Virus record (IMG/VR): IMGVR_UViG_2778261448_000009
Location: 1 to 35,006 of that record
DNA: 35,006 nt
Strand: one strand, 5' to 3'
From: a virus
Lineage: Duplodnaviria > Heunggongvirae > Uroviricota > Caudoviricetes
Shown piece by piece: positions 1-30,870 of the stretch. The translations under genes and the position numbers were made by a program. The notes beneath the pieces were generated by a model that made no database searches, was not told where the DNA came from, and was given only the letters and a program-made list of their open reading frames with translations. Each line of letters opens with the position of its first letter. Within the stretch, counting starts at the first letter, position 1.

Positions 1-942
1 TTATTGGCAGTAAGAAAAGTTAGTACCATACATTTCATCATGAAGCATTGCAGCATTGCGTTTCTGTTCTTCTTCCTCGTCTTCTACATCACTAGAGAAA
101 TAGGATTTTCCCTTGAAGGAACGAAGCAATTGCAGTGCAGCCATCGGATCACGCATCACATCGATTTTCACTTCTACTTCATCATTTGCGGCCTCATCAG
201 CCGCGTTTTCAACTACTGCTACCGGAGCAACTTCTTTAGCTTTCAGTTCTTCAATCTCAGATTTCTGTGCTTCAATAATCTGGTCTTTTTCTTCCAGTGC
301 AGCTTTCAGTTCTGCGATCTGTGCTTCCAGTGCAGCAAAGCGATCTTCAACAACAGGAGAAACAGCATTAACCTGTGCTTCCAGTTCCAGAAATGCTTCG
401 CAAGATTCAATACGTTCTTTCTCTTCACCTTCATAAGCAACCAGTTCTACAACTTCTTTTTCGGTAGCGTGGCTGTTAAAGAATACAGCAAAGTAAGGAT
501 TGCCGGATTTAGTGAAGTTCAGTTTAGCTTTTCCGGTAACTTCTTTACGACGACCGAAGGTGATCTGGCAATCAGCGGTATCCTGAAAATCCATGTTAGG
601 AGCGGAAACGATAGCAGTATCACCAGCAATAACCAGGTGGAACAGTTCAGAAGAGTTCTTAACGGTGAAAGTAACGATGTGGTCTACTGCAACGTCTTTA
701 GCAGGTTTAACGCGGTCGATTGCTTTACGAATGCCGTTAGGCAGTTTACCGTCAACACCAAAGCCAGCCGCGATCAGTGCTTCACGATGTGCTTTAAAGC
801 CAGCGAAAGCGGATTTCTGCTGTGCAAAGGAAACATGAGCAACAACTTTCGGCTGAATCTTCTTGTTTGCTTCGGTTCCAAATTTGATAACTGCTTTAGC
901 GTTGGTTACTTCGTTAGTGAAAAAGTTAGCGGAAAATAACAT
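1..942 (-). CDS. hypothetical protein, 313 aa: N-terminal globular region, central coiled-coil (AALEAQIAELKAALEEKDQIIEAQKSEIEELKAK), acidic C-terminal stretch
   Basis: Complete minus-strand ORF; revcomp shows AGGAG 8 nt before the ATG at 942-940 and a TAA stop at 3-1. The plus-strand ORF 4-939 is low-complexity antisense. Function not recognised. Confidence 0.6.
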   Translation of the reverse strand: MLFSANFFTNEVTNAKAVIKFGTEANKKIQPKVVAHVSFAQQKSAFAGFKAHREALIAAGFGVDGKLPNGIRKAIDRVKPAKDVAVDHIVTFTVKNSSELFHLVIAGDTAIVSAPNMDFQDTADCQITFGRRKEVTGKAKLNFTKSGNPYFAVFFNSHATEKEVVELVAYEGEEKERIESCEAFLELEAQVNAVSPVVEDRFAALEAQIAELKAALEEKDQIIEAQKSEIEELKAKEVAPVAVVENAADEAANDEVEVKIDVMRDPMAALQLLRSFKGKSYFSSDVEDEEEEQKRNAAMLHDEMYGTNFSYCQ

Positions 943-988
943 TATAAATACTCCTGTGGAAAGTTAGTTTTAATTGTTCATCGCAAAA

Positions 989-1025
989 GCCTCCTTGTTG
1001 CCGCAAGGGGGCTTTTTTATTTTTA
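989..1025. terminator. hairpin flanked by T-runs on both strands (possible bidirectional rho-independent terminator)
   Basis: 9-bp stem GCCTCCTTG/CAAGGGGGC with one G-U wobble, 6-nt loop, then TTTTTTATTTTT on the plus strand; the minus strand has TTTT after the stem. Confidence 0.5.
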
Positions 1026-1056
1026 AAGCCATCATATAATTCTCAGTGAAAGGTTA

Positions 1057-1239
1057 TTACCACACCTCTGCGGTAATCTTTACGCGAATATCATACTTCT
1101 TTAAGAGTTTATGAAAGGTTGATTTATCGATACCCTCATTTTTAAACCACTCTTCAATTCTCACACCCGGCGTTAACTCAAAGTAGCGTTTAGCCATTTC
1201 TAAGATGATTTCGCGAGTGAACTTAACAGGTCGTGCCAT
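1057..1239 (-). CDS. small helix-turn-helix-like DNA-binding protein, 60 aa
   Basis: Complete ORF with TAA stop; the segment GIDKSTFHKLLKKYDIRV looks like an HTH recognition helix. Function inferred from the motif only. Confidence 0.45.
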   Translation of the reverse strand: MARPVKFTREIILEMAKRYFELTPGVRIEEWFKNEGIDKSTFHKLLKKYDIRVKITAEVW

Positions 1240-1702
1240 CTCGAATCCTCCTACAATGTGGATTAATGATTTCTTAAAAAAGAGCGTTAACCGCTCACTA
1301 TTATTTATATGGGGATTGTATTTTATTTTTCAACCCCTCACATTTATCTCTTATATATGTATTTATAACAGAGATATGTTAAAATGTTATTCAGATGTTA
1401 TCAGACGTGTTAAATGTGTTAAACCGCAGCACGAATTGCTAAAGCGGAGAGCACGAATTAACCAAATTGATGTATATTCAATCAATTTAGAAAAAGGCAT
1501 AGCACTTTTTGCTAAAGCGGTGAGCATTAATTGAGCTATGAATTGTAAAGATTTGTTACAAGATTTTCTCTCAGATCCAAATCTTCACAGACATATAACA
1601 ATTTAACACGGTGATAACAATAGGAAGGAAAATCGGTAAATTTTCACTTTCAATACAAATATTATAACATATTTATCTCTAATTGTCAAGTGTAGCACCG
1701 AT

Positions 1703-1751
1703 CCTACACAGTGTCAACAAAGGATTTTCAAACCTACACTAGCCCTACACT
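1703..1751. repeat. CCTACAC repeats (3 copies) with a GTGTAG/CTACAC dyad
   Basis: CCTACAC at about 1703, 1733 and 1744; dyad AGTGTAG-caccgatc-CTACACA at about 1690-1712. Confidence 0.5.
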
Positions 1752-1758
1752 ATGAAAA

Positions 1759-1933
1759 TTGCCCCTGAATTTTGCCCCTGAACCAAAATCCCCTAGATTT
1801 CACTATCCCATTTTTGCCCCTGAAACCTACTATTTTTGCCCCTGAAAATCTAATTTTTGCCCCTGAAATTTGCCCCCGAAAAGGATTGGTGAGAAAAACT
1901 CTTTATAAAACATTAACTTAGTGAGGGGCAAAA
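1759..1933. repeat. iteron array: six direct copies of TTGCCCC(T/C)GAA plus one inverted near-copy
   Basis: Copies start at 1759, 1772, 1814, 1836, 1857 and 1870 (spacings 13, 42, 22, 21, 13 bp); a degenerate copy TCCCCTAGA at about 1790; inverted copy GAGGGGCAAAA at 1923-1933. No ORF overlaps. Confidence 0.8.
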
Positions 1934-2064
1934 CGGGGAATCGGGCGTGCATAGATATTATATAACACATTCGCTACGCTCATGTGTAAAACCAAAAACA
2001 ACAAATAACCAAAAAGATATTAGGAGGGCTTTGCCCGACTGCGCGAAGCGCCAACCAATTGCTT

Positions 2065-2304
2065 CTAGTAACAACTAATTTAAACTAGATGATACTAGAT
2101 GGTCTTAGAAGGAATTAACTAGTTTGCTCGCTCGCTTCGCTCACTCTCAAACGTCTGCGACGCCACTGCGTGGCATCGAGAATCACTTCTGAAAGGATTT
2201 TCTTGAAAGGGATTTTAAACTAGTTACTAACTGATTCTAGAAAGATAGTAATAATCACTTTGAAGATAATAGTAGTTAACTGGTTACTAGATGATTCTAG
2301 ATCA
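2065..2304. repeat. CTAG-rich repeat cluster (8 CTAG in about 240 bp) with direct repeats ACTAGATGAT and TGATTCTAGA, interleaved with GC-rich dyads
   Basis: CTAG at 2065, 2085, 2095, 2119, 2220, 2237, 2287 and 2297; ACTAGATGAT at 2084 and 2286; TGATTCTAGA at 2232 and 2292; GCGAAGCG (2045) inverted as CGCTTCGC (2133); GCCACtgcGTGGC at about 2162-2174. Confidence 0.75.
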
Positions 2305-2330
2305 CTTTAATGATCATGAAAGGTATTGGT

Positions 2331-2359
2331 ATCCCTTCGGGATTGCAACCTTCGGTTGC
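2331..2359 (+). other. two adjacent stem-loops with UUCG tetraloops (candidate RNA structural element in the leader of the 2562 gene)
   Basis: ATCCC-TTCG-GGGAT at 2331-2343 and GCAACC-TTCG-GGTTGC at 2345-2359; no U-run follows, so it is not a classical terminator. Confidence 0.45.
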
Positions 2360-2561
2360 TAAATTGCTTCCGGATTATTATTTCTCCAAAAGAAAGATTC
2401 TTATATTCTAAAGATACTTCTTCGTTTTGATGATGATTTAATCAAAATCTATGAAGGAGGCGAAGCCGACTGAATACCAATTCCTTTCAAATTAGACAAA
2501 AATTTCTCGTTATAAATAATAGTGAACTTACTTTGATTCACTTTTTTAGAGGATTTCCACT

Positions 2562-3011
2562 ATGATCAATACTAAAACTCCTTTCATTCTTCTGGGTCTG
2601 AACCATGATGATAATCTGGCTATGATGCATGTTTTCGCTAATCGTGGTTATAACATCATTCGTCATTCCGAAGACTCCAATTTCTCAACTGCTTTCTATG
2701 CTCTTAAACGTAATGGTCGCCCTACGGTGATCGTAGACTGCTTTACTGATGAAGGTCGTGAACAATACAACAACATTCCGGCAATTATTGTTCGTGATGA
2801 CCTGCCGTTTGATGTTCGTGAATATGACGTTGATTTAGGCTCTTACTATGGGATCGCCGATCTTGACCAGATTATGGCTGATTATGGTAAACAACCCGCT
2901 CAGGAAGCCCCAGAACACGATGAACAAGACGAAGATGACGACTACACACCAATCTGTTTCTCTTCTCACGGTGGCTTCTACGGTTACGATGAAGGCTTAG
3001 ATATGCTGTAA
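2562..3011 (+). CDS. hypothetical strongly acidic protein, 149 aa (candidate early anti-restriction or DNA-mimic protein, speculative)
   Basis: GAGG-type RBS before the ATG; I count about 29 D/E against 10 K/R, with a C-terminal EAPEHDEQDEDDDY cluster; first ORF downstream of the 1.3 kb noncoding region. Confidence 0.6.
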   Translation: MINTKTPFILLGLNHDDNLAMMHVFANRGYNIIRHSEDSNFSTAFYALKRNGRPTVIVDCFTDEGREQYNNIPAIIVRDDLPFDVREYDVDLGSYYGIADLDQIMADYGKQPAQEAPEHDEQDEDDDYTPICFSSHGGFYGYDEGLDML

Positions 3012-3046
3012 TTTAGGTCAACCCTTTGGCGTCTTGTCAAGGGGTA

Positions 3047-3075
3047 TTGACAAAATTTTCTGACTTTTTTATGAT
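3047..3075 (+). promoter_or_regulatory. sigma70-like promoter: TTGACA, 17-bp spacer, TATGAT
   Basis: Exact -35 hexamer at 3047-3052 and near-consensus -10 at 3070-3075; further TTGACA/TTGTCA boxes at 3034 and 3084; lies upstream of the 3132 gene. Confidence 0.5.
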
Positions 3076-3131
3076 TATCGCACTTGACAACTTTGAACCT
3101 ATTTGACCTAGATTTGTAAAGAGGATGTAAC

Positions 3132-3464
3132 ATGAAAGAATTTACCATCACTAAATCCCTGTATGACTGGACTGTTAAAATCTCCGGCAAAACCGTTTCT
3201 GTAAGCCCTAGCCATGTAGAAAATGATTGGGGCGTATCCCGTGAAACTATCTCCCGTAGTATGCATGTTCCGTTTGATCTGATGTCCTTAACTGGTATTC
3301 ATGCAATGCTGGAAGTTCGCGAACAATTCGAAGCTGGTAATCACAATGCGACTCCAGTTAACAATCACCTTCTTACTAATGAAGAACGTGAAATCATCGA
3401 AAACTGGCGTTATGAATATGCGATTCCTTATTATGAAGAAGATCAGGTAGAAATCGATTGGTAA
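3132..3464 (+). CDS. hypothetical acidic protein, 110 aa, with an HTH-like segment (GVSRETISRSM); weak candidate for a small terminase or regulator
   Basis: RBS AGAGGA before the ATG; TAA stop; no recognisable family by eye. Confidence 0.5.
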   Translation: MKEFTITKSLYDWTVKISGKTVSVSPSHVENDWGVSRETISRSMHVPFDLMSLTGIHAMLEVREQFEAGNHNATPVNNHLLTNEEREIIENWRYEYAIPYYEEDQVEIDW

Positions 3465-3565
3465 TAAATTTCTATTATAAATAAAATTGTTCCGCGCGCC
3501 GTTGGCGTGTGGACAGTTAAAAACAGGAGAATCAATCACTAAACCGTTTAAGGGGAATTTTTACT

Positions 3566-4414
3566 ATGAATACTGTTACTACTATGAATACTGCTGTTAA
3601 AACTGCTTCCGTGTCTCTGGTTGTTGATAACACCAAACCGCTGACCATGTCTACTTTGCAGATCGCGGAATTAACCGGAAAGAATCATAAAGATGTTATG
3701 CGTGATTTTCGTAATATGGTTGATTCGCTTGAAAAGGGTAGCAAACTGGTCGGAGGAGATGAGCGCAATTTTGCGCCCATCGGTTTTTATAAAGAAACGA
3801 CTTATAAAGATTCTCTGAATCGTAATAAACCGATGTATGAACTGGATGAAGATCTCTGTAATACTCTGGTTATGGGATACGATGCACCGCTTCGCTTCAA
3901 AATTGCTAAAGAATGGCGTTTGATGAAAGAAGGTAAAGCTAATGTTCCGGTTAATCCATATGAACACTTTGAAGAAACAGACTGGATCGAACTGGCGTTA
4001 AAGAAAACTCGCGAAAACAAACAACTGATTGAACTTCATGTTCGCAAATCCGTAGATAGCCATTCTATGACACGTCTGTTAGGCGCTAAAAAGGGCGCTA
4101 CGAAGGTTAAAGAAGCACTGACGGCCTTGCGTACTGCTGGCTACATTGAGCGCGTCTATGATGAAAATAACAAGCCGTGTGGGTATGTTGCTAATGACTC
4201 TTCTCTGTCTTTCTGCCGCATGAATGCTCACTACCAACTTGAGTTTACTGTTGATGTTCTTCCTGTGTTGGTTGAATTGGGCATTTTGGAAGAAGAACAG
4301 AAAGCAACTCTTAAACTACCGCAGCCAAATAACACTATTCTGATTCAAAACAAAGCTGCTAAACAGATTCGTGAATCAGGTAACGTAATTTCCCTTGTTG
4401 ATTTTGGGATCTGA
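3566..4414 (+). CDS. Rha-family phage regulatory protein, 282 aa
   Basis: N-terminal segment LTMSTLQIAELTGKNHKDVMRDFRNM matches the signature I recall for the Rha (Phage_pRha) family; RBS AAGGGG before the ATG; TGA stop. Confidence 0.65.
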   Translation: MNTVTTMNTAVKTASVSLVVDNTKPLTMSTLQIAELTGKNHKDVMRDFRNMVDSLEKGSKLVGGDERNFAPIGFYKETTYKDSLNRNKPMYELDEDLCNTLVMGYDAPLRFKIAKEWRLMKEGKANVPVNPYEHFEETDWIELALKKTRENKQLIELHVRKSVDSHSMTRLLGAKKGATKVKEALTALRTAGYIERVYDENNKPCGYVANDSSLSFCRMNAHYQLEFTVDVLPVLVELGILEEEQKATLKLPQPNNTILIQNKAAKQIRESGNVISLVDFGI

Positions 4415-4420
4415 TTAATC

Positions 4421-4451
4421 GCCCGGCGCATAATTGCGCTGGGCTTTTTTG
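4421..4451 (+). terminator. rho-independent terminator after the Rha gene
   Basis: Stem GCCCGGCGC/GCGCTGGGC with one mismatch, loop ATAATT, then TTTTTT. Confidence 0.6.
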
Positions 4452-4462
4452 TATCTGATGCA

Positions 4463-4568
4463 TCCAGATTTGGATTTCTAGAAAGAATCAACCACTTAGA
4501 TAGATACGCTGAACTTTAAGCACATCCCCTCAGTTTTGAGGGCATCTATAGATCAGTCCAAATCTGGA
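4463..4568. repeat. perfect 12-bp inverted repeats TCCAGATTTGGA / TCCAAATCTGGA enclosing an 82-bp segment with an internal hairpin
   Basis: Arms at 4463-4474 and 4557-4568; internal hairpin CCCTCA-GTTT-TGAGGG at about 4528-4543; the element lies between two convergent terminators. Confidence 0.7.
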
Positions 4569-4610
4569 CTCAACTTAGAAATGAGCGCAGTTTTGCGCCG
4601 ATTGTTTTAC

Positions 4611-4638
4611 ATACAAAAAAGCCACTCCGAAGAGTGGC
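4611..4638 (-). terminator. rho-independent terminator for the minus-strand genes, UUCG loop
   Basis: Minus strand reads GCCACTC-TTCG-GAGTGGC followed by TTTTTT. Confidence 0.65.
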
Positions 4639-4653
4639 AAAGAGAATCAAAAC

Positions 4654-4887
4654 TCAAAAACCTGTTGCTTCTACGATCTGACCATCACCGATCTGAACAT
4701 AGAATTTAATGTCTAACTTCTTCATATTCTTATAGAATTGGGCGATTGAGATCCCATGTTCACTAAGAATCTGTTCTTTCGCTTCCTTACCACGATCCGC
4801 TGTATAGTAAGCGTAGGCAATATCAGCCATCTGTTCAGCGTTAAAACGGCAAGGACGACCGCGAGTAGCTTTAGTAGTCATAGTCAT
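4654..4887 (-). CDS. small putative DNA-binding protein, 77 aa
   Basis: Complete ORF ending in TGA; N-terminal TRGRPCRF and an HTH-like ISIAQFYKNMKKLDI segment. Confidence 0.5.
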   Translation of the reverse strand: MTMTTKATRGRPCRFNAEQMADIAYAYYTADRGKEAKEQILSEHGISIAQFYKNMKKLDIKFYVQIGDGQIVEATGF

Positions 4888-4915
4888 TTCTCCAAATTAA
4901 AGTGAATGTTCACCT

Positions 4916-5521
4916 TTATTTAGAGGACTTACATTTTATCGGAAAAAGTTCTCCATCGTCAATACTCATAAAGAACTCTACCTTAATCCCGTACTTCCTC
5001 AGCCGTGAATAATATGTACCCCGACTAATATCAACCTTGCGAAGCACTTCGAAGAACCCTGTAGGATCGTTGTAATAGTGGCTATATTTCACGTTAGCGA
5101 GTTCAACGAATAGTTCCCTTGTATCACCATAGCCTTTCTTGAAAGCCTCGTTACGATAGCGTGTAATTGCGTGATTCAATCTCTTCTGTTTCAACACTTC
5201 TCGGATCGGTGTCCACTGCAAACGATAGATAGGACCGTCATCCACTCGATAATAACGCTTGATATCAAAATCAAACCAATCTCGGACTCTCCGAAACTCT
5301 GTATGTGATGTTCTATGCTTCTTAAAGAAGTTGTGAACGTCTGTATAACCATTATCGCGGTAAAACTCTATTAAAATCTCTTTCGCTTCCTCACGACTAA
5401 AGCCAGATGTTGTGTAGTCGGTTTTTAAATGCTTATGCTTAACTGGCAAACGATATTCATGATCGGTACAACAAGACAAGGCTAATTCTACTTCATCTCT
5501 TTGTTGCTGATTAATTAGCAT
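4916..5521 (-). CDS. hypothetical basic protein, 201 aa, with HTH-like segments
   Basis: Complete ORF with TAA stop; segments such as [14 protein letters not shown] resemble the HTH of the 60-aa protein at 1057-1239; function unknown. Confidence 0.5.
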
Positions 5522-5606
5522 ACAACCCCCTTTAATTAATACCCGTATTTATCAAAATATCAACAATTTAATAAATACCTTCATATTTCGTAATGAGGGT
5601 AATTAC

Positions 5607-11807: not shown

Positions 11808-12098
11808 ATGTTCAAATTATCAGAATCACAATTATCAAGAATGTTTAAGAGTGCTCCTGTATTTGTGGTGGAAGGTGGTAAATCAATTCGTGCTTATCAT
11901 GAAATTACTACTACCGACGAATCAGGTGTAATGACAGAAACCGAATTTCTATTCTGTCGTGAGGGAGACTTAAAGCAAGGTGATATTGTCACAGTAGAAA
12001 ACCAGCGTTTCAAAGTTCAATACGTTAAGCGCAATGGTGACAATACTTGTGATTGCTTTATCACTTTAGCAGGGGGTACACATGCTCGCTACCGTTAA
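11808..12098 (+). CDS. hypothetical head-tail joining protein, 96 aa (lambda FII position)
   Basis: RBS AAGGGGGTAACT before the ATG; assignment by synteny only. Confidence 0.4.
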   Translation: MFKLSESQLSRMFKSAPVFVVEGGKSIRAYHEITTTDESGVMTETEFLFCREGDLKQGDIVTVENQRFKVQYVKRNGDNTCDCFITLAGGTHARYR

Positions 12099-12504
12099 TA
12101 ATATGCCGAGACTGAAAATCAAACGCGCCTTGCAAGATATTATCGAACAAGATTTAGGTCTGGCTTTAAACGTAGAACAAACTCAGCAAGGCTTTAGTGA
12201 TGACGTGGTTTGTTGGATTACTGGCATGAATGAAACTTATACGCGTGTTCGTGGTGGTAATGCAATGCAAGCTGAATGCGTTATCGAAATGCAATTATAT
12301 TCTCAGATTCATGAAACCAAAATTCATGAGGGTATTTGCCAGATAATCCAGATTCAGCCGGATAACCCACGTTTTAAAGATTTGGGCTTCTCAATTTCAG
12401 ATATCACTCCAGTAGCTTCTAATACCGATTATGACGATGATTCTAGTGATGGGGGTATCGTTGGGACACTTAGCCTTAAATTTTCTTATCTAGCGCGTTT
12501 TTAA
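12082..12504 (+). CDS. hypothetical head-tail or tail-completion protein, 140 aa (lambda Z/U position)
   Basis: Overlaps the upstream gene by 17 nt; AGGGGG before the ATG; assignment by synteny only. Confidence 0.4.
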   Translation: MLATVNNMPRLKIKRALQDIIEQDLGLALNVEQTQQGFSDDVVCWITGMNETYTRVRGGNAMQAECVIEMQLYSQIHETKIHEGICQIIQIQPDNPRFKDLGFSISDITPVASNTDYDDDSSDGGIVGTLSLKFSYLARF

Positions 12505-13428: not shown

Positions 13429-16400
13429 ATGCAATCAATCCAATTTAAACGCACACAGACGGCTGGTAAAAAGCCGACGCCGGAACAATTATCACAGGGT
13501 GAAATCGCCTTACAGTTGGCGGATCATGTGATTTACACCAAAGACAAAAATAATAACGTAGTCCAAATTAGTGTTTCTCCAGAAAAACACGCTGAACTGA
13601 ATACGAAAGTAGACACCAACAAGGTCAATACAGATAAAGTCATTTCAGCAAATAAAACCGAAGCCGCTAATAATCTGGCTAGTGCTAAAGCTGAACTGAA
13701 TCAGACTATCACTTCTACCCGTGATACTCTCAATGCTTCAATCACTGCTGGCGATACCGCAGCCAACAAACGAATTGATGCTTTGACTACCACAGTAGGT
13801 AACAATAAAACCGAAGCGGCTAACGCTCTGGCGGCTGCTAAGACTGAACTGAATCAGACTATTACTTCAACCCGCGATACTATCAACGCGACAATTAACA
13901 AGAACAAGACAGATATTAATGCGCGAGTTGATCAGACGAATACCAACGTTACCAACTTAACGAATACTGTCGCAGCAAATAAATCAGCAATAGAAAAGAC
14001 GGTAGCGGATAATAAGAAAGATGCGGACACGAAGATCACCAATCTTACTAGTACGGTCTCTGCGAATAAGACGGCCATTGAAAGAACTGTTGCAAATAAC
14101 AAGGCCAGTGCCGATGCCGCAATTGCCGCAGCTAATCAGCGAATTGATTCGATTGAAGGTAGTGCCGATGCTGCTTACATCAAGAAGAATACCAACACTT
14201 ACCATCACGGCTATCTGTTAACCAAAACAGCTAACTATTTGGAAGACCAGACAGCGAGAGATCTTAACTACTTTGGTGCTTTCCGTACCAATGGTCAAGA
14301 TGGACTCATGGATCTAACTCTTAACGTTCCTCACTCTGCCGGCAAAGCGCACGGTCGCGGATTTACTTTCCGTTATGCGTCTGGTGGATCTCGTGTTGAA
14401 ACCTATGGTTTTGATAGAGAAGGACAGAAGAACTTTAGCTATAAGATGTATCACGAAGGTGATAAGCCGACTCCTGGCGAGATTGGTGCATACACCAAAG
14501 CCGAAGTTGATAAGATGTTTGTTAAAAACGTCGTTATGTCTGTTCCCAATTCTAGCGAAAACGTATCTGCATATTTCAAATTGGCAACCGCAACAATTCC
14601 ACAAAACGGGCGTAGTGTGTTTTTCCGTATTCATGGTGGTAATGGTTACAACGTTACGGCATATGACCAAGTTGATGTAGTAGAAATTCTTCTCCGTAGT
14701 GGTAACGATAGACCTAAAGGTCTTAACGTAATTGCATACCGTAGAAATACAAACAAAGATTTTGAGGTATTTGCTGTCAATACTTCCGGTGATAACTATG
14801 ATATCTACGTGAAATATCAGCGTTATACCGATAACGTTATTGTCGAATATGGGAAATCTGTTTATGTAAGTTTGACGGTTTATGATACGCCGGAAGCCAC
14901 GTTAATTAAACCTTCCGTTGGTGTTATCGGTGGTCGCAACGTAACTCTTTTTAACACAGAAAATAAACGTGGTGTGTTGAGTTTTGACGATAACACACAA
15001 AATAGTTATGATATTGTTCACTTGAGTAATGATAGGGGTACTGGTCGGAAATATATTCGTAAATTCCGTAGCAACTATAACGAAATGATCTGGCATGAGA
15101 CGGTTCAAGGTTCTACTTATCGACTCGCCACGGGTAGTACAGATTCTCAGGAGATTCTATCCGTTGAATCTAGTAGCTCTATTGCTGGGACTCATAAAGG
15201 TAATATTCTTTCTGGTCGAATGATGTTGGGTGGCGGTAGTAATGTTATTACCTTGCGGCGTCCTGCTGGTCAATCCAACCATATTGCGTTTCAAGATAAT
15301 CGGACTGGAGATATTACCCGTCAAGGGTGGATCGGTTATGGTAATGCTGATACTAACGTTTTTGAATGGTATAGTGATGTAGGTGGTACTTCTATTCGTC
15401 ACCACATAGACGGACAGATCGAATTTCAGACAGGTAACACAAAACGAGTTTATACTAACGCTCAATTCATCTCAATGAATAGCGACGCCTACCGCATGAT
15501 CTACGGTAATTATGGTGCATTCTGGCGTAATGACGGCAATAAAGTTTATCTTCTTTCTACTGCCGAAAATGATAAATTGGGCGGATGGAATGGAAACAGA
15601 CCGTTCATTTACGATTTGACTAACGGTAAAGTTACTTTAGGCGGTGATGGTAACGAAGGTGCATTAGTTCTTGAAAGAGATAGCCGTGCTGCCCGTTTTA
15701 GCAACAATGTATTCTTAGAAAAAGGACTGCTTACTTTCTCTGCTGGTGGAAATCAGTCGATGGATTCTTTTACGATTAACCATTGGGGGAATAGTAATGC
15801 CAATCGATATAACGTTTTGCAATTCCAGGACACTAGCGGAACTCACTTTACTACAGAACGTAACGGTACTGGTGGCTTACTTGCTCATTTCCGAGGGGAT
15901 TTAACTACCGAAGGAAAATTAACGTGGGGCAAAAATACAGCTACTTCTAGCTTTAATATCCGTGCGTGGGGTGCTGATGCTCGTAAACAAGTATTCGAAT
16001 GTGCGGACGAAAGCGGTTGGCACTGGTACACACAACGACCGGGCGGTCCGGGTACTGAATTAATCGAGTTTGCCATCAACGGTACTGTTAAACCTAAAGC
16101 AATTCACACTGGCGGTAATATCACGCTTAACGGTGCTGATATTGAGTTTCGTCGCAGTGGCAATAAGCATTTGTGGTTTAGAGATCCAAATGGCTTAGAA
16201 TTGGGTCTGTTGTACTGCGATGATGCTGGCGTTATGCGTATGCGCGGTGAGAAACAAACCGAAGTCTGGAAATTCGGCGGTAAGATGATTCACCTTGAAA
16301 CGGGCACTGTATCCGGTGGCGGTAATGGTCTTATTCGTGGTAGCGTTGCTGGTGGTAGTTGGGCTAGCTGGCGTGATCGTGCTTCTGGTATTCAGGTCGA

Positions 16401-16965
16401 TTGTCAACAATCAACCGATTCCGCTCATAACGTATGGAAAGCAACCCATCAAGGTAAATATCATATCGCAGCAATGGGTGTACATGTTCCTAGCGGTACT
16501 ATCGGTAACGCTACAGTTAAACTTCATGTTCATGACGCTGGTTTTGACTTTAACGCTGCTGGTGACTTTACCGCAGGTCGTAACGGTTCGTTTAACGATG
16601 TTTACATTCGCTCTGACTCCCGTTTGAAGATTAACAAGGAAGAATTACAGGACGGTGCATTAGAGAAAGTAAACTCCCTGAAAGTATACTCTTACGATAA
16701 AGTTAAATCTCTTTCCGATGACACAGTGATTAAACGCGAAGTAGGTATTATTGCTCAGGATCTGGAAAAAGTATTACCGGAAGCAGTAGGTATTCAATCC
16801 ACCGAAGATCCAGAACATCCAGAAGCAATCAAGACTATTTCTAACTCTGCTGTCAATGCTTTAATCATCAAAGCAATGCAGGAAATGACCGCTAAGTTTG
16901 ATGCTATGGCTAAAGAACTTGCCGAAACTAAAGCTGAATTAGCCGAACTGAAAGCAACTAAATAA
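13429..16965 (+). CDS. side tail fibre, 1178 aa, with C-terminal intramolecular chaperone (peptidase S74-like) domain
   Basis: N-terminus MQSIQFKRTQTAGKKPTPEQLSQGEIALQLADHVIY; tandem about 50-aa repeats (NKTEAAN-LA-AK-ELNQTITSTRDT) at nt about 13650-13900; C-terminal SDSRLKINKEELQDG...VGIIAQDLEKVLPEAV followed by a coiled coil, as in self-cleaving fibre chaperone domains. Confidence 0.75.
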   Translation: MQSIQFKRTQTAGKKPTPEQLSQGEIALQLADHVIYTKDKNNNVVQISVSPEKHAELNTKVDTNKVNTDKVISANKTEAANNLASAKAELNQTITSTRDTLNASITAGDTAANKRIDALTTTVGNNKTEAANALAAAKTELNQTITSTRDTINATINKNKTDINARVDQTNTNVTNLTNTVAANKSAIEKTVADNKKDADTKITNLTSTVSANKTAIERTVANNKASADAAIAAANQRIDSIEGSADAAYIKKNTNTYHHGYLLTKTANYLEDQTARDLNYFGAFRTNGQDGLMDLTLNVPHSAGKAHGRGFTFRYASGGSRVETYGFDREGQKNFSYKMYHEGDKPTPGEIGAYTKAEVDKMFVKNVVMSVPNSSENVSAYFKLATATIPQNGRSVFFRIHGGNGYNVTAYDQVDVVEILLRSGNDRPKGLNVIAYRRNTNKDFEVFAVNTSGDNYDIYVKYQRYTDNVIVEYGKSVYVSLTVYDTPEATLIKPSVGVIGGRNVTLFNTENKRGVLSFDDNTQNSYDIVHLSNDRGTGRKYIRKFRSNYNEMIWHETVQGSTYRLATGSTDSQEILSVESSSSIAGTHKGNILSGRMMLGGGSNVITLRRPAGQSNHIAFQDNRTGDITRQGWIGYGNADTNVFEWYSDVGGTSIRHHIDGQIEFQTGNTKRVYTNAQFISMNSDAYRMIYGNYGAFWRNDGNKVYLLSTAENDKLGGWNGNRPFIYDLTNGKVTLGGDGNEGALVLERDSRAARFSNNVFLEKGLLTFSAGGNQSMDSFTINHWGNSNANRYNVLQFQDTSGTHFTTERNGTGGLLAHFRGDLTTEGKLTWGKNTATSSFNIRAWGADARKQVFECADESGWHWYTQRPGGPGTELIEFAINGTVKPKAIHTGGNITLNGADIEFRRSGNKHLWFRDPNGLELGLLYCDDAGVMRMRGEKQTEVWKFGGKMIHLETGTVSGGGNGLIRGSVAGGSWASWRDRASGIQVDCQQSTDSAHNVWKATHQGKYHIAAMGVHVPSGTIGNATVKLHVHDAGFDFNAAGDFTAGRNGSFNDVYIRSDSRLKINKEELQDGALEKVNSLKVYSYDKVKSLSDDTVIKREVGIIAQDLEKVLPEAVGIQSTEDPEHPEAIKTISNSAVNALIIKAMQEMTAKFDAMAKELAETKAELAELKATK

Positions 16966-17663: not shown

Positions 17664-18170
17664 ATGGCGAATGTCGTTAATAAGCCTGGCTGGGTCGGGT
17701 CATCTGCTGTTTCTGTAACTGGTCAACGATGGATGAGCGCAGCAATGAACGCATTAAAGGTTAGTCGCCCAGCTAACATGAGTGCGATGTGTGGTCGTGG
17801 TATGGATACGGTTGTAGCTACTGCTGCGTGGACTACTTCATTGGGTAATAACTGGGGTGTAACTGCTTCAAACTATCCAGTAACTGACATGCGCGGTAAA
17901 GGATCTATGGAGAACCCCGAAAACGTGGGCGTAGGGCGTCTGATTGGCGTTATCGTTGGTCAATTCAATGGTGGTACTCCTACTATGGCTGTATATCTCC
18001 AGAACGGTAGAGCGGGGAATATAACCGTTAATTTGGGTGGTGCTGCTGTCACTGTTCCTTATAACAGTATGCAAAGTGGTTTTCATTACTATTGGTTAAG
18101 CAATCCTCCGGCTGCTTTCCTAACAAATATTAAGAAGGCTGGCACTAAGCAGACTTTGAAAATCTCTTAA
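17664..18170 (+). CDS. hypothetical structural protein, 168 aa
   Basis: RBS GGAG before the ATG; sits between the tube and chaperone genes; Gly/Thr/Val-rich, beta-rich composition; no family recognised. Confidence 0.4.
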   Translation: MANVVNKPGWVGSSAVSVTGQRWMSAAMNALKVSRPANMSAMCGRGMDTVVATAAWTTSLGNNWGVTASNYPVTDMRGKGSMENPENVGVGRLIGVIVGQFNGGTPTMAVYLQNGRAGNITVNLGGAAVTVPYNSMQSGFHYYWLSNPPAAFLTNIKKAGTKQTLKIS

Positions 18171-28810: not shown

Positions 28811-30301
28811 TTATATAGCAATTGTTTTAGTTGCATAGCTGAACTTGTCGGTTAGATAATAGCGGATTCTCTCAAGTGCATGTTTTACCGCATAATTTTT
28901 ATGCTTGACTTTTCCGTTACGACCGAATATACACAGATGATCTATAAGATCCCAGACCGTTGCAATATCCTTAGAACCATGTTTACGCAATGCACGACCG
29001 ATACTCTGACGAACGATAGTTGATTCCTTCACGGGATGACCGAAAATAACATGGTGCAAATTCTTAATTGAAACACCAGTAGAGAAAACACCATAGGAAG
29101 CAACACAAATGATCCCTGTTTCCCCTTCCGCTAATTTCTTAAATTCATCACGTTCTTCTGTCTTAACTCCACCGTCAATATAATAAACCTTGTCGTGTAC
29201 CTTCTGTAACGCGTCATACATAAGTTTTCCGTGCTTAGTATTGCGGAACATCAGGAATACGTTTTCGCCCTTCTTAGCGAGTTTTAGCGCCAAATTACAA
29301 GCAAACTTATTACGTCGTGGGTTAGACGTAATATACTTGATCTCTTCCGCATATTCTCTACCCTTAACCGCGCTACATTCCTCATCGGTATAACGAAGGA
29401 AAAGACAGTTGATTTTCAGTTTCGTCACTTGACCTTCTTCCATCAGGCGGTCAATACTCACGATCTTAGAAATATCACCGAAAAGACCGACATACTGTAA
29501 AAGATGGCATTTTGATTCTTTAGGGGAACCAGTCATGCCGATTTTAAACTGGCAATGATTCATTCCGTTGATGATATTGGTAATATTTTTGGCACTAGCC
29601 TTATGTGATTCATCAACTATCAACATTCCATATTGTCGGAACCATTCAGGAGGCATCTTGCAAGCTGATTGCCATGTTGAAACAGTGATTAGCCTATCTC
29701 CCGGATGTTTCCCGCTACCACTCATCATTGTATGAATTGCTTCATAAGGGAATAACCGATAATCGATGAAATCATCCCTCATTTGAACCACTAGCGATGT
29801 AGTAGGGACAATGATTAACACTTTTCCGGTGTAGTTCTCTAAGTACCAACGAGACAGCATACAAGCAATCAATGACTTACCCGCACTGGTAGGAAGAACC
29901 AGCATTCTACGGCGATTATGAATACCCTGAAAGACTGCCTCCCTTTGATACCAGTAAGGATTGATTTTATTGGAACCGGAATACACTTCTAGGGAATCAA
30001 TCCATTCATTAATCGCGTCTTTGGTTACATCTTCCTTCTCAAGCAATCGCGGGTCAATCCAGACTGAATAGCCCATATTTTTAACGAAGACACCCAACGT
30101 TTTTAATAGTCCAATTGGTAGGGTATTTTCATGCGTAAACAGTCTTATTCGTCCATCCCAGCCGGAATACTTGTAGCGGGGGCTAAACCTAGCCCCTTCA
30201 ACCTCAAACGAGAAATAATCCCTTAATTCCATTCCGATAGAAGGAGAGCAATCAACCTTAACGAAACTGTAATCTTGAAAATGAATTTTAATATCTTGCA
30301 T
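28811..30301 (-). CDS. uvsW: UvsW-like SF2 DNA helicase (T4 UvsW homolog), about 496 aa
   Basis: Near-collinear with T4 UvsW as I recall it: MQDIKIHFQDYSFVKVDC..., PYWYQREAVFQGIHNRRRMLVLPTSAGKS (Walker A), LIIVPTTSL, MLIVDESH (motif II), YIDGGV, ICVASYGVFSTGVSIKNLHHV, GRALRKHGSKDIATVWDLID. I place the start at the ATG at 30301-30299, overlapping the upstream stop as TAATG. Confidence 0.85.
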   Translation of the reverse strand: MQDIKIHFQDYSFVKVDCSPSIGMELRDYFSFEVEGARFSPRYKYSGWDGRIRLFTHENTLPIGLLKTLGVFVKNMGYSVWIDPRLLEKEDVTKDAINEWIDSLEVYSGSNKINPYWYQREAVFQGIHNRRRMLVLPTSAGKSLIACMLSRWYLENYTGKVLIIVPTTSLVVQMRDDFIDYRLFPYEAIHTMMSGSGKHPGDRLITVSTWQSACKMPPEWFRQYGMLIVDESHKASAKNITNIINGMNHCQFKIGMTGSPKESKCHLLQYVGLFGDISKIVSIDRLMEEGQVTKLKINCLFLRYTDEECSAVKGREYAEEIKYITSNPRRNKFACNLALKLAKKGENVFLMFRNTKHGKLMYDALQKVHDKVYYIDGGVKTEERDEFKKLAEGETGIICVASYGVFSTGVSIKNLHHVIFGHPVKESTIVRQSIGRALRKHGSKDIATVWDLIDHLCIFGRNGKVKHKNYAVKHALERIRYYLTDKFSYATKTIAI

Positions 30302-30870
30302 TAGTTCCACTCCACACTTGCAATATTCTTTATATTGTTTAGTGATTTATTGCAGTAGTGGAATGTTTCAGTTTTGCCGTATTCAATCCCGCCTATACCC
30401 ACATCCAGTAATCTCTTTATTGCTCTTTCAGTGGCTAAAGCATGTTTCATTGATGGCATTTCACCAGCAAAGACAATATCAAAGTTATGACCGGGATTGC
30501 GTACACCCAGATTAATGCGTCGCTTGATGATTGACTTTGTAACACCAAATTTACCAATATCCCCTGATTTCATTACATAGAGATAAGGCACACCCGCTTT
30601 ATATTGAAAGTAATCACTTTTGAGACATGCACAGCGTTTACCTTCATTAAGCAGGTTGGTAGCTGATTTGTCGGCTCTATTGCCGCATCGGGTACATGTA
30701 AGAGCAATTCTTGAATGAAGCCCTTTAAACTCACCCAGAAAGCCATGAAAGACTAACGGTAAGTCCTTCTCTTTGATGTGAGTCAGAATGCGTTGTTCTA
30801 ATGCCGATGGAGTTACAGCACGGGAGGATTTAGGAGTAAAAACAATATCTTTAGCCATTACTGGAATCAT
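30301..30870 (-). CDS. T5orf172-domain (GIY-YIG-like) protein with N-terminal zinc-ribbon-like CxxC pairs, 189 aa
   Basis: PYLYVMKSGDIGKFGVTKSIIKRRINLG fits the T5orf172 signature as I recall it; CTRCGN...CAC cysteine pairs; GAGG before the ATG; translationally coupled to the helicase gene. Confidence 0.55.
   Translation of the reverse strand: MIPVMAKDIVFTPKSSRAVTPSALEQRILTHIKEKDLPLVFHGFLGEFKGLHSRIALTCTRCGNRADKSATNLLNEGKRCACLKSDYFQYKAGVPYLYVMKSGDIGKFGVTKSIIKRRINLGVRNPGHNFDIVFAGEMPSMKHALATERAIKRLLDVGIGGIEYGKTETFHYCNKSLNNIKNIASVEWN

Follow-up and report, generated by a model that had tools for sequence, protein, structure and literature searches.

The stretch of DNA examined here, referred to as the window, is the 35,006-nucleotide (nt) sequence of the virus record IMGVR_UViG_2778261448_000009, which covers approximately 35 kb of an uncharacterised Escherichia coli prophage of approximately 37.6 kb. 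Near its left end lies a gene-free gap (1240-2561), bounded on the left by the gene for a 60-amino-acid (aa) helix-turn-helix (HTH) protein and on the right by the plus-strand gene for a 149-aa protein (2562-3011), with the operons diverging on either side. The gap was first pointed out in an initial annotation made from the sequence, and it is real: no open reading frame (ORF) of at least 60 aa is present save one of 109 aa at the left edge (1205-1534, plus strand), and all of the features listed there by that annotation are present at or near the places it had assigned to them. ORFs down to 20 aa were also considered, none of which has a convincing ribosome-binding site, and coding use of the gap was rejected given that insertions and deletions among relatives are not multiples of three (for example, 12 versus 14 nt in the hairpin at 2461-2472). 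A transfer RNA (tRNA) scan found nothing within the gap, and RefSeq carries no annotation there in most relatives.

The survey of the gap in relatives drew on 13 E. coli genome loci and 25 IMG/VR loci, the matching of classes described below covers 39 loci, and the alignment of the gap covered 11 relatives (labels such as L001 denote loci). A length of approximately 1.1-1.5 kb is retained in all relatives, even where these are too diverged for blastn, and since it is kept in 39 related loci, the gap is not a chance feature. At its core is an array of six direct copies of TTTGCCCCTGAA, correctly recognised at the outset as iterons, with spacings of 13, 42, 22, 21 and 13 bp (Table 1). These iterons are confined to the region, and the six direct copies and one inverted copy make up seven of the nine matches in the window. 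The repeats have a single orientation in the window and its relatives and are mostly spaced 21-22 or 42-43 bp apart, in the manner of iteron origins, where at least three direct repeats of approximately 12-22 bp run in the same direction at regular spacing. Among the relatives, four unrelated repeat arrays occupy this place, at the same distance from the HTH gene. Class A, to which the window belongs, has 6-12 copies of TTTTGCCCCTGAA, class B has 4-9 copies of AACCTACACTA, class C has five copies of AATCCCCAAGATTCCA, and class D has approximately 20 closely spaced copies of TCCCCG.

The class of the array is matched by that of a 313-aa protein, a candidate iteron-binding initiator, whose gene comes second in the leftward operon. 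Iteron class equals the N-terminal class of this protein in each of the 39 loci (class A, 21/21; class B, 15/15; class C, 1/1; class D, 2/2), with protein identities of at least 92% inside class A and inside class B and of 24-30% from one class to another. The array and the gene are approximately 0.8 kb apart, and recombination has independently exchanged the DNA between them, including the HTH gene and the non-coding module that precedes the array. Two alleles exist for the HTH protein (H1 and H2, approximately 55% identical) and two for this left module (L1 and L2); class A is found with H1L1 and H2L2, and class B with H1L1, H1L2 and H2L2. The HTH allele is therefore independent of iteron class, and linkage of the HTH allele to the left-module allele was rejected, as H1 is found with both L1 and L2. 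The 149-aa protein likewise does not track the class of the array. Because the coupling of classes survives recombination between the two partners, the 313-aa protein appears to recognise the array, and there is good genetic evidence that the array would be its binding site. At the level of sequence, the firm new fact is that the repeats and an orphan protein family make up a specificity system of four classes.

The 313-aa protein has a beta-rich N-domain, a coiled coil at approximately residues 182-237 and an acidic C-tail. The tail, EDxEEEQ...AAMLHDxxYxTNxSY, is common to classes A and B and differs in classes C and D, and the proteins of classes B, C and D terminate in ...AA. This modular build, with a class-specific N-domain and a C-tail common to A and B, parallels that of lambda O. 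The protein is a near-orphan, with approximately three distant relatives among 1.8 billion representative proteins, and no Pfam, PHROG, NCBIfam or PDB-sequence match was obtained beyond the coiled coil. In classes C and D, the iteron-linked gene is followed by a second gene of similar build (L023:5314-6315 and L011:6-866), whose products also have a beta-rich N-domain and a coiled coil and have in common the C-terminal end CKLTKPE...RPTLRLVA.

The core of the gap is tentatively read as an iteron-type replication origin with a new kind of initiator, to which a probability of roughly 0.45 is given. An origin had been offered as an alternative in the initial annotation, and it is the reading that the evidence tends to favour. 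In this model, the gap would be a composite control region placed where two early operons of a temperate E. coli siphophage diverge, and the array together with the adjoining, easily melted AT-rich DNA would form the phage replication origin. The variable N-domain of the 313-aa protein may read the iterons, the coiled coil may serve to multimerise the initiator, and the C-tail could recruit a partner such as the host or a phage helicase. After induction, the leftward promoter would express the HTH-initiator operon and may also aid opening of the origin by transcription. If this is correct, an origin and a new, sequence-orphan initiator family with at least four interchangeable natural specificity classes have been identified, and these four classes amount to ready-made swap experiments.

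Like the origins of lambda (ori/O) and of the plasmids R6K (gamma), P1 and F, the region described here has one-direction repeats, mostly two or four helical turns apart, as well as a neighbouring gene whose product matches the repeats in class. The likeness extends to AT-rich, easily melted DNA followed by GC-rich palindromes and to a modular protein with a specificity N-domain and a proposed partner-binding C-end. In contrast to these origins, the iterons lie outside the gene, with a leader of approximately 400 nt and the small HTH gene between them, and the sequence of the 313-aa protein shows no relationship to lambda O or the winged-helix Rep proteins, its N-domain being predicted to be beta-rich. 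Another point of comparison is T4 oriE, which has evenly spaced 12-nt iterons, with T4 origins being located at points of transcriptional divergence (PMC3016281). The present array is like oriE in its evenly spaced short direct repeats and in its location, although this is a likeness of layout, T4 differing from a temperate, siphovirus-type prophage with a lambda-type terminase, and the role of the oriE iterons is itself unproven (PMC3016281). In T4 oriF and oriG, a promoter is followed by an unwinding element, and the R-loops formed at these origins are a substrate for unwinding by UvsW (PMC3016281); the prophage similarly has a UvsW-type helicase and a strong promoter that reads into its least stable DNA.

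Several observations weigh against an origin, and the features that support it are suggestive rather than decisive. No resemblance of the 313-aa protein to Rep, lambda O or other DNA-binding families could be detected, and no homologue was found by tblastn in plasmid or phage collections. Its AlphaFold2 (AF2) model has a mean predicted local distance difference test (pLDDT) score of 53.6, and fold searches gave generic beta-barrels only; because the model is of low confidence and the folds are generic, DNA binding by the protein is argued from covariation and from nothing else. The 39 loci are also not independent events, because they come from related E. coli prophages. The 13-bp doublets in the array are out of helical phase, and, unlike in the lambda and plasmid origins, DnaA boxes are not in excess. 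Lastly, equal covariation would result if the 313-aa protein were a class-specific regulator, for example of immunity or exclusion.

Such a regulator is the premise of a second explanation, considered unlikely though not negligible, in which the array would work together with the 313-aa protein as a transcriptional or immunity system (the protein being a repressor, an exclusion factor or a titration partner) and the gap is a genetic switch. Promoters do diverge across the gap, four specificity classes in near-identical prophages resemble heteroimmunity groups, and no CI-like repressor was found in scans of the prophage genes; as a repressor candidate, a 201-aa minus-strand protein (4916-5521) received no support. 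The class-independent motif TGAAAGGNATT, with five of its ten window matches within 2190-2586, flanks the rightward promoter in both orientations as operators would. On the other hand, the iterons are clear of all predicted promoters in both left-module alleles and are more than 600 bp from the rightward promoter, and their distance from the leftward promoter differs by allele (an estimated 70 bp or so versus roughly 190 bp). Their copy number of 6 to approximately 20 is also unusual for operators. Promoters as strong as the leftward one are, in prophages, normally repressed early lytic promoters, so its 12/12 match to the consensus is what a repressed lytic promoter, and not one for maintenance, would typically show, and fits an early replication operon better than a gene for maintaining lysogeny. 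Prophages of classes A and B are co-resident in UTME-9 (NZ_CP157110.1, at 2806354 and 3413984), in keeping with immunity groups, and the BS74R-D genome appears to have the class A gene at two places, which would argue against them; as a test of an immunity versus an origin role, co-residence provides a single informative genome.

Table 1. Features of the gap and of the leftward operon next to it (positions in the window).
Feature	Position	Strand	Remarks
Gene for 313-aa protein	1-942	-	Second gene of leftward operon; candidate iteron-binding initiator
Gene for HTH protein, 60 aa	1057-1239	-	First gene of leftward operon; weak HTH_Tnp_1 match
Hairpin GAGCG-TTAAC-CGCTC, then minus-strand T run	1282-1296	-	Terminator-like site on both strands
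Left copy of exact 15-nt inverted repeat TATAAATAATAGTGA	1295-1309	-	Oriented toward HTH gene
AT-rich block	1300-1420		GC 0.295-0.315
Two 32-nt elements, AGCAC-N5-TGCTAAAG-N4-AGCA-N2-AATT	1428-1532	+	Sub-repeats 22 bp apart
Leftward sigma-70 promoter, TTGACA, 17 nt, TG-TATAAT	1661-1689	-	Predicted; 12/12 consensus match
CCTACAC repeats	1691-1750	+	Class B iteron cores within the window's left-module allele
Six class A iterons, (T)TTTGCCCCTGAA	1758-1880	+	All in one direction
Degenerate inverted iteron, right of array	1921-1932	-	Inverted copies also follow class B and D arrays
A/C-rich strand-asymmetric tract ending in AAAGATATTA	1988-2022	+	AT skew +0.236
Twin GC mini-hairpins, GGGC-TTT-GCCC and GCGC-GAA-GCGC	2026-2051		
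First CTAG cluster, with short palindromes such as AACTAGTT	2060-2125		
GC island GCTCGCTCGCTTCGCTCACTC, then hairpin at 2158-2178	2126-2178		
58-nt block, TGAAAGGATTT and TGAAAGGGATT, then ACTAGTTACTAACTGATTCTAGA	2186-2243	+	Near-invariant; almost identical in classes A, B and C
Second CTAG repeat copy, AACTGGTTACTAGATGATTCTAGA	2276-2303	+	Block missing from some relatives
Twin hairpins, ATCCC-TTC-GGGAT and GCAACC-TTC-GGTTGC	2331-2359		Minus strand has CCGAAGG twice
Segment like repeated RB49-type intergenic DNA	2396-2447	+	Palindrome TTTTGAT-N9-ATCAAAA at 2425-2447
ATGAAGGAGG, mini-hairpin GGCGAAGCC (2458-2466), GACTGAATAC, inverted TGAAAGG motif (2479-2489)	2449-2489	+	
Rightward promoter cassette, TAGACA-16-AATAAT overlapping TATAAATAATAGTGA (2511-2525), hairpin AGTGAA/TTCACT with T run, ribosome-binding site	2493-2561	+	ATG at 2562

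The module to the left of the array contains the DNA that would be opened. By a nearest-neighbour stability scan, the least stable 40-mer of the entire window is at 1351-1390 and the fourth least stable at 1637-1676, the latter overlapped by the leftward promoter; both lie left of the array, and this easily melted DNA adjoining it is a predicted unwinding element. The promoter reads through a leader of approximately 400 nt to the HTH and 313-aa genes. Just upstream of the ribosome-binding site of the HTH gene, the hairpin at 1282-1296 is a candidate terminator or attenuator. The two left-module alleles are essentially unalignable, and the second has a different hairpin (GAGC-TTTTC-GCTC) at the same spot and its own promoter, TTGACA-17-TATACT, 343 nt upstream of its HTH gene. 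A 24-bp direct repeat noted previously proved to lie within a longer repeat of 32 nt (1428-1459 and 1501-1532, 81% identical), the core motif of which is kept as one copy in the otherwise unrelated second allele. CCTACAC repeats, also noted, are located at 1703, 1733 and 1744, with an inverted GTGTAG at 1691. No relatives of the HTH protein turned up in species-representative genomes.

It was also considered that the gap encodes one or more structured non-coding RNAs, such as a leader or small RNA of approximately 370 nt that would start at the leftward promoter and end in the hairpin at 1282-1296. The left module is indeed framed by a consensus promoter and a terminator-like hairpin, hairpins are kept through replacement of their sequence, and folding beats shuffled controls (z = -6.2 for 1240-1660, minus strand; z = -4.95 for 1990-2561, plus strand). 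The opposite strands, however, fold almost as well (z = -4.6 and -4.7), and because both strands fold about equally, the signal is ascribed to DNA dyad symmetry and not to strand-specific RNA. The unalignable left-module alleles likewise speak against a structured RNA, and Rfam returned no family even at permissive E values up to 5, the best score being 26.6 bits against a gathering score of 49 bits and all E values being at least 0.05. Considered very unlikely, this explanation was set aside on account of the equal folding of the two strands.

In the model of an iteron-type origin, the right-hand 0.55 kb of the gap (approximately 2023-2561) would be a separate module, ending in the promoter of the rightward early genes, and it is largely independent of iteron class. 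It would most likely carry operator, terminator and promoter cassettes, and possibly priming hairpins. Ahead of it, the AAAGATATTA end of the A/C-rich tract is conserved before the hairpins in classes A, C and D. The GC dyads of the initial annotation are present as GGGCTTTGCCC (2026-2036), GCGCGAAGCGC (2041-2051) and CGACGCCAC-TGC-GTGGCATCG (2158-2178). In the first pair, the stems are kept and the loops vary among relatives (TTT, GTA or TTTA in one; GAA, GTA or TTTA in the other), and class D has GCGCCC-TGC-GGGGCGC in their place. Motifs of the SCGAAGS mini-hairpin type are concentrated here, with 5 of the 18 window copies within 2043-2466; mini-hairpins of this kind are described as common where phage replication initiates and in RSF1010 ssiA (PMC13037366). 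The CTAG cluster that had been noted is also real, as 8 of the 64 copies in the window lie within 236 bp (2065-2300), an approximately 18-fold local excess in a window where CTAG is under-represented overall. Within the GC island, TCGCTTCGCTCAC is conserved over classes A, B and C, and a similar cattcGCTTCGCtcatgag occurs twice in the phage DCP80. Further right, two hairpins are indeed found where twin UUCG hairpins had been proposed (ATCCCTTCGGGAT, 2331-2343; GCAACCTTCGGTTGC, 2345-2359), but these are not C(UUCG)G tetraloops, the best pairing being stems of 5-6 bp with 3-nt TTC loops; in L011, L014 and L025, unrelated hairpins of the form GACGCTC-loop-GAGCGTC stand in their place. In the mini-hairpin of the next element (2449-2489), pairing is kept in five variants, one of which is changed on both sides of the stem.

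The early-gene promoter anticipated at the right end corresponds to a promoter-like site at 2493-2520, in a cassette of which TTATAAATA is invariant in 11 relatives. Both borders of the gap have the same organisation, in which an exact copy of TATAAATAATAGTGA points outward, with a hairpin, a T run and a ribosome-binding site after it. The two copies (1295-1309 and 2511-2525) are 100% complementary and are its only occurrences in the window. Among the 11 aligned relatives, TATTTATA in the left border repeat is invariant, as is TATAAATA, the core of the border repeats. The latter, which is the T4 late-promoter consensus, is found at 943, 1302, 1360, 2511, 3476 and 34464, as well as at approximately 19348 in L001; five of the six window copies are within the first 3.5 kb, and four are located 35-85 nt upstream of small accessory genes, often with a hairpin next to them. 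By blastn, 2373-2455 has 76-81% identity to intergenic DNA without annotation, at three or four places in the genome of every RB49-type phage (Krischvirus). In RB49, the gap between ORF164c and ORF165c (L016:340-770), approximately 410 bp of non-coding DNA, has two copies of TTCTAAAGATnTTTCTTCGTTTTGATCATAATTTAATCAAA, GC islands and CTAG, and at the sequence level it resembles the right-hand module of the window.

These similarities recall the promoter-plus-stem-loop elements (PeSLs) of RB49 and phi1, in which a strong sigma-70 promoter is joined to a stem-loop and which are described as mediating the shuffling of modules (Arbiol et al., 2010; PMC2839356). In one proposal, compatible with a central origin, the right-hand module would be a stack of empty PeSL cassettes that has served as a landing pad for recombination after loss of the ORFs. 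At least five hairpin units lie 100-170 nt apart in AT-rich DNA, cassette-sized blocks come or go among relatives, and the borders and three other intergenic spots have one layout, with TATAAATA, a hairpin, in some cases a T run, and a ribosome-binding site. As in PeSL cassettes, which are repeated units present or absent between relatives, sigma-70-type promoters and GC stem-loops stand immediately before small orphan genes that each have a ribosome-binding site; such a layout of promoter, stem-loop, ribosome-binding site and small gene is found at both borders (1282-1309, minus strand; 2493-2553, plus strand), and similar ones are at 3020-3075 and 3476-3510. The first of these has a stem-loop, CCCTT...AAGGG, followed by an 11/12 sigma-70 promoter (TTGACA-17-TATGAT) upstream of a 110-aa gene. 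The element described here differs in that it is a temperate prophage and not a T4-type phage, and its cassettes have the common TATAAATA box. Moreover, 2023-2561 contains a single promoter-like site, the likeness is to RB49 intergenic DNA and not to a demonstrated PeSL, and the near-invariance across classes of the block at 2186-2243 suggests a present function and not a relic, so that the proposal is regarded as rather improbable.

The invariant TATAAATA boxes at both borders, the RB49-like intergenic match and the gp37/gp38-type and UvsW-type genes of the prophage (described below) have also led to a more speculative suggestion, that the prophage listens in on T4-type phages. The late transcription machinery of an RB49-like superinfecting phage would then switch on the HTH-initiator operon and the rightward early genes, and the origin would be fired for defence or piracy. 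No gp55-like factor was found in the prophage, and the suggestion is judged highly improbable; if it were true, the 313-aa family would be a new class of iteron-binding initiator. Should the gap be an origin as proposed above, regulatory DNA common to temperate lambda-type and virulent T4-type phages would be documented, which bears on the movement of modules between distant lineages.

The initial annotation had put a packaging site first, with the GC-rich dyads as nick sites, the repeats then being sites for terminase binding. It reasoned from a large terminase (TerL) of the lambda GpA type, which a family match confirms, and from the lack of a small-terminase gene directly upstream of the large one. 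Since TerL is of this type, a cos site must exist somewhere, and the gap does have GC-rich dyads and, as in lambda cos (cosQ-cosN-cosB, next to Nu1), dyads and repeats upstream of structural genes. A small terminase subunit (TerS) is nevertheless encoded just outside the window (L001:18785-19339, 184 aa), matching PHROG 57 'terminase small subunit' (E 2.8e-15) and, faintly, Pfam Nu1. The gene starts approximately 1.2 kb left of window position 1, which is approximately 2.5 kb left of the gap and 365 bp from the junction with ycdX, and two genes converging on it lie between it and the gap. Unlike lambda cos, where the TerS-binding repeats lie between the nick site and the small-terminase gene, the gap is not beside TerS, and three genes with their own promoters as well as two opposite-strand genes separate it from TerL.

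The repeats also do not follow TerS, which is 86-100% identical over classes A and B and one class D locus (54% in the other class D locus) and 100% identical between L001 of class A and L034 of class B; because TerS is this similar across iteron classes, the iterons are not its recognition repeats. Nor do the dyads behave as nick sites, as both loops and stems change among relatives and another hairpin takes their place in class D; pairing that is kept through such changes points to selection for a hairpin and not for a fixed nick sequence. By contrast, a block of approximately 250 bp upstream of TerS is conserved throughout the relatives, in spite of differing flanks on its left. It contains a GC-rich dyad, GCGCGGTCGCTACGCGAC, better conserved than those of the gap, and is preceded by phased A-tracts in L001 (strain 14EC007). 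The gap is probably not a packaging site, that role having become a slim prospect for it, and the block upstream of TerS (within L001:18420-19339) is the best candidate for cos, to which the search for a packaging site would be redirected if the gap is an origin. A partition-like site, which had also been suggested, is unsupported, because none of the scanned prophage genes matched a ParA or ParB family.

One parallel in favour of packaging comes from the record of a distant relative, DCP80 (Escherichia phage, PQ671644.1, 141 kb; L015/L042 = 1-45000), whose TerL is 45% identical and in which two small genes and TerL are directly preceded by 1.28 kb of non-coding DNA of similar appearance; the TerS-like gene of DCP80 is 25 kb away. 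The start of this record was rejected as a physical genome end, as it lies four bases inside an apparent minus-strand gene start. The record combines a lambda-type structural module with early genes of T4 type (motA, ndd, rIIA, which is listed twice, and endonuclease VII); either the phage is a genuine hybrid or the assembly is chimeric.

The prophage is inserted at ycdX, as in strain 14EC007 it sits between two halves of this gene. Window positions 1-5600 are matched in 61 of 5,426 complete E. coli genomes, in every case on the chromosome. The early and replication functions of this prophage family, which is present in approximately 1% of complete E. coli genomes, are entirely without annotation. 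Besides the terminase, it encodes a lambda-family portal, a protease-capsid fusion, tail genes, an M15 endolysin and a large serine recombinase. In E. coli ETEC1717 (L005:2841-3946), the 150-aa gene is directly followed by a truncated terminase gene, and because the deletion took out the Rha region and the start of TerL, that prophage appears to be decaying. ARAGORN called a tRNA-Gln at 12269-12359 (minus strand) inside a 140-aa ORF (12082-12504), which may be a false positive.

Among the scanned prophage genes, no initiator, primase or helicase loader was detected, and the sole related match is a helicase (28811-30310, minus strand) with the N-terminal domain of T4 UvsW (Pfam UvsW_N, E 2e-34), which thus resides in a temperate prophage otherwise showing no replication enzymes. 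By megablast against sequenced phages, the prophage has no match except in its distal tail-fibre gene (14212-16888), which has approximately 80% DNA identity to gp37 of the RB49-type (Krischvirus) T4-like phages and is followed by a gp38-type adhesin gene (17664-18170). Judged by sequence, this gp37/gp38-type pair looks like a host-range module common to a temperate siphophage and virulent myophages.

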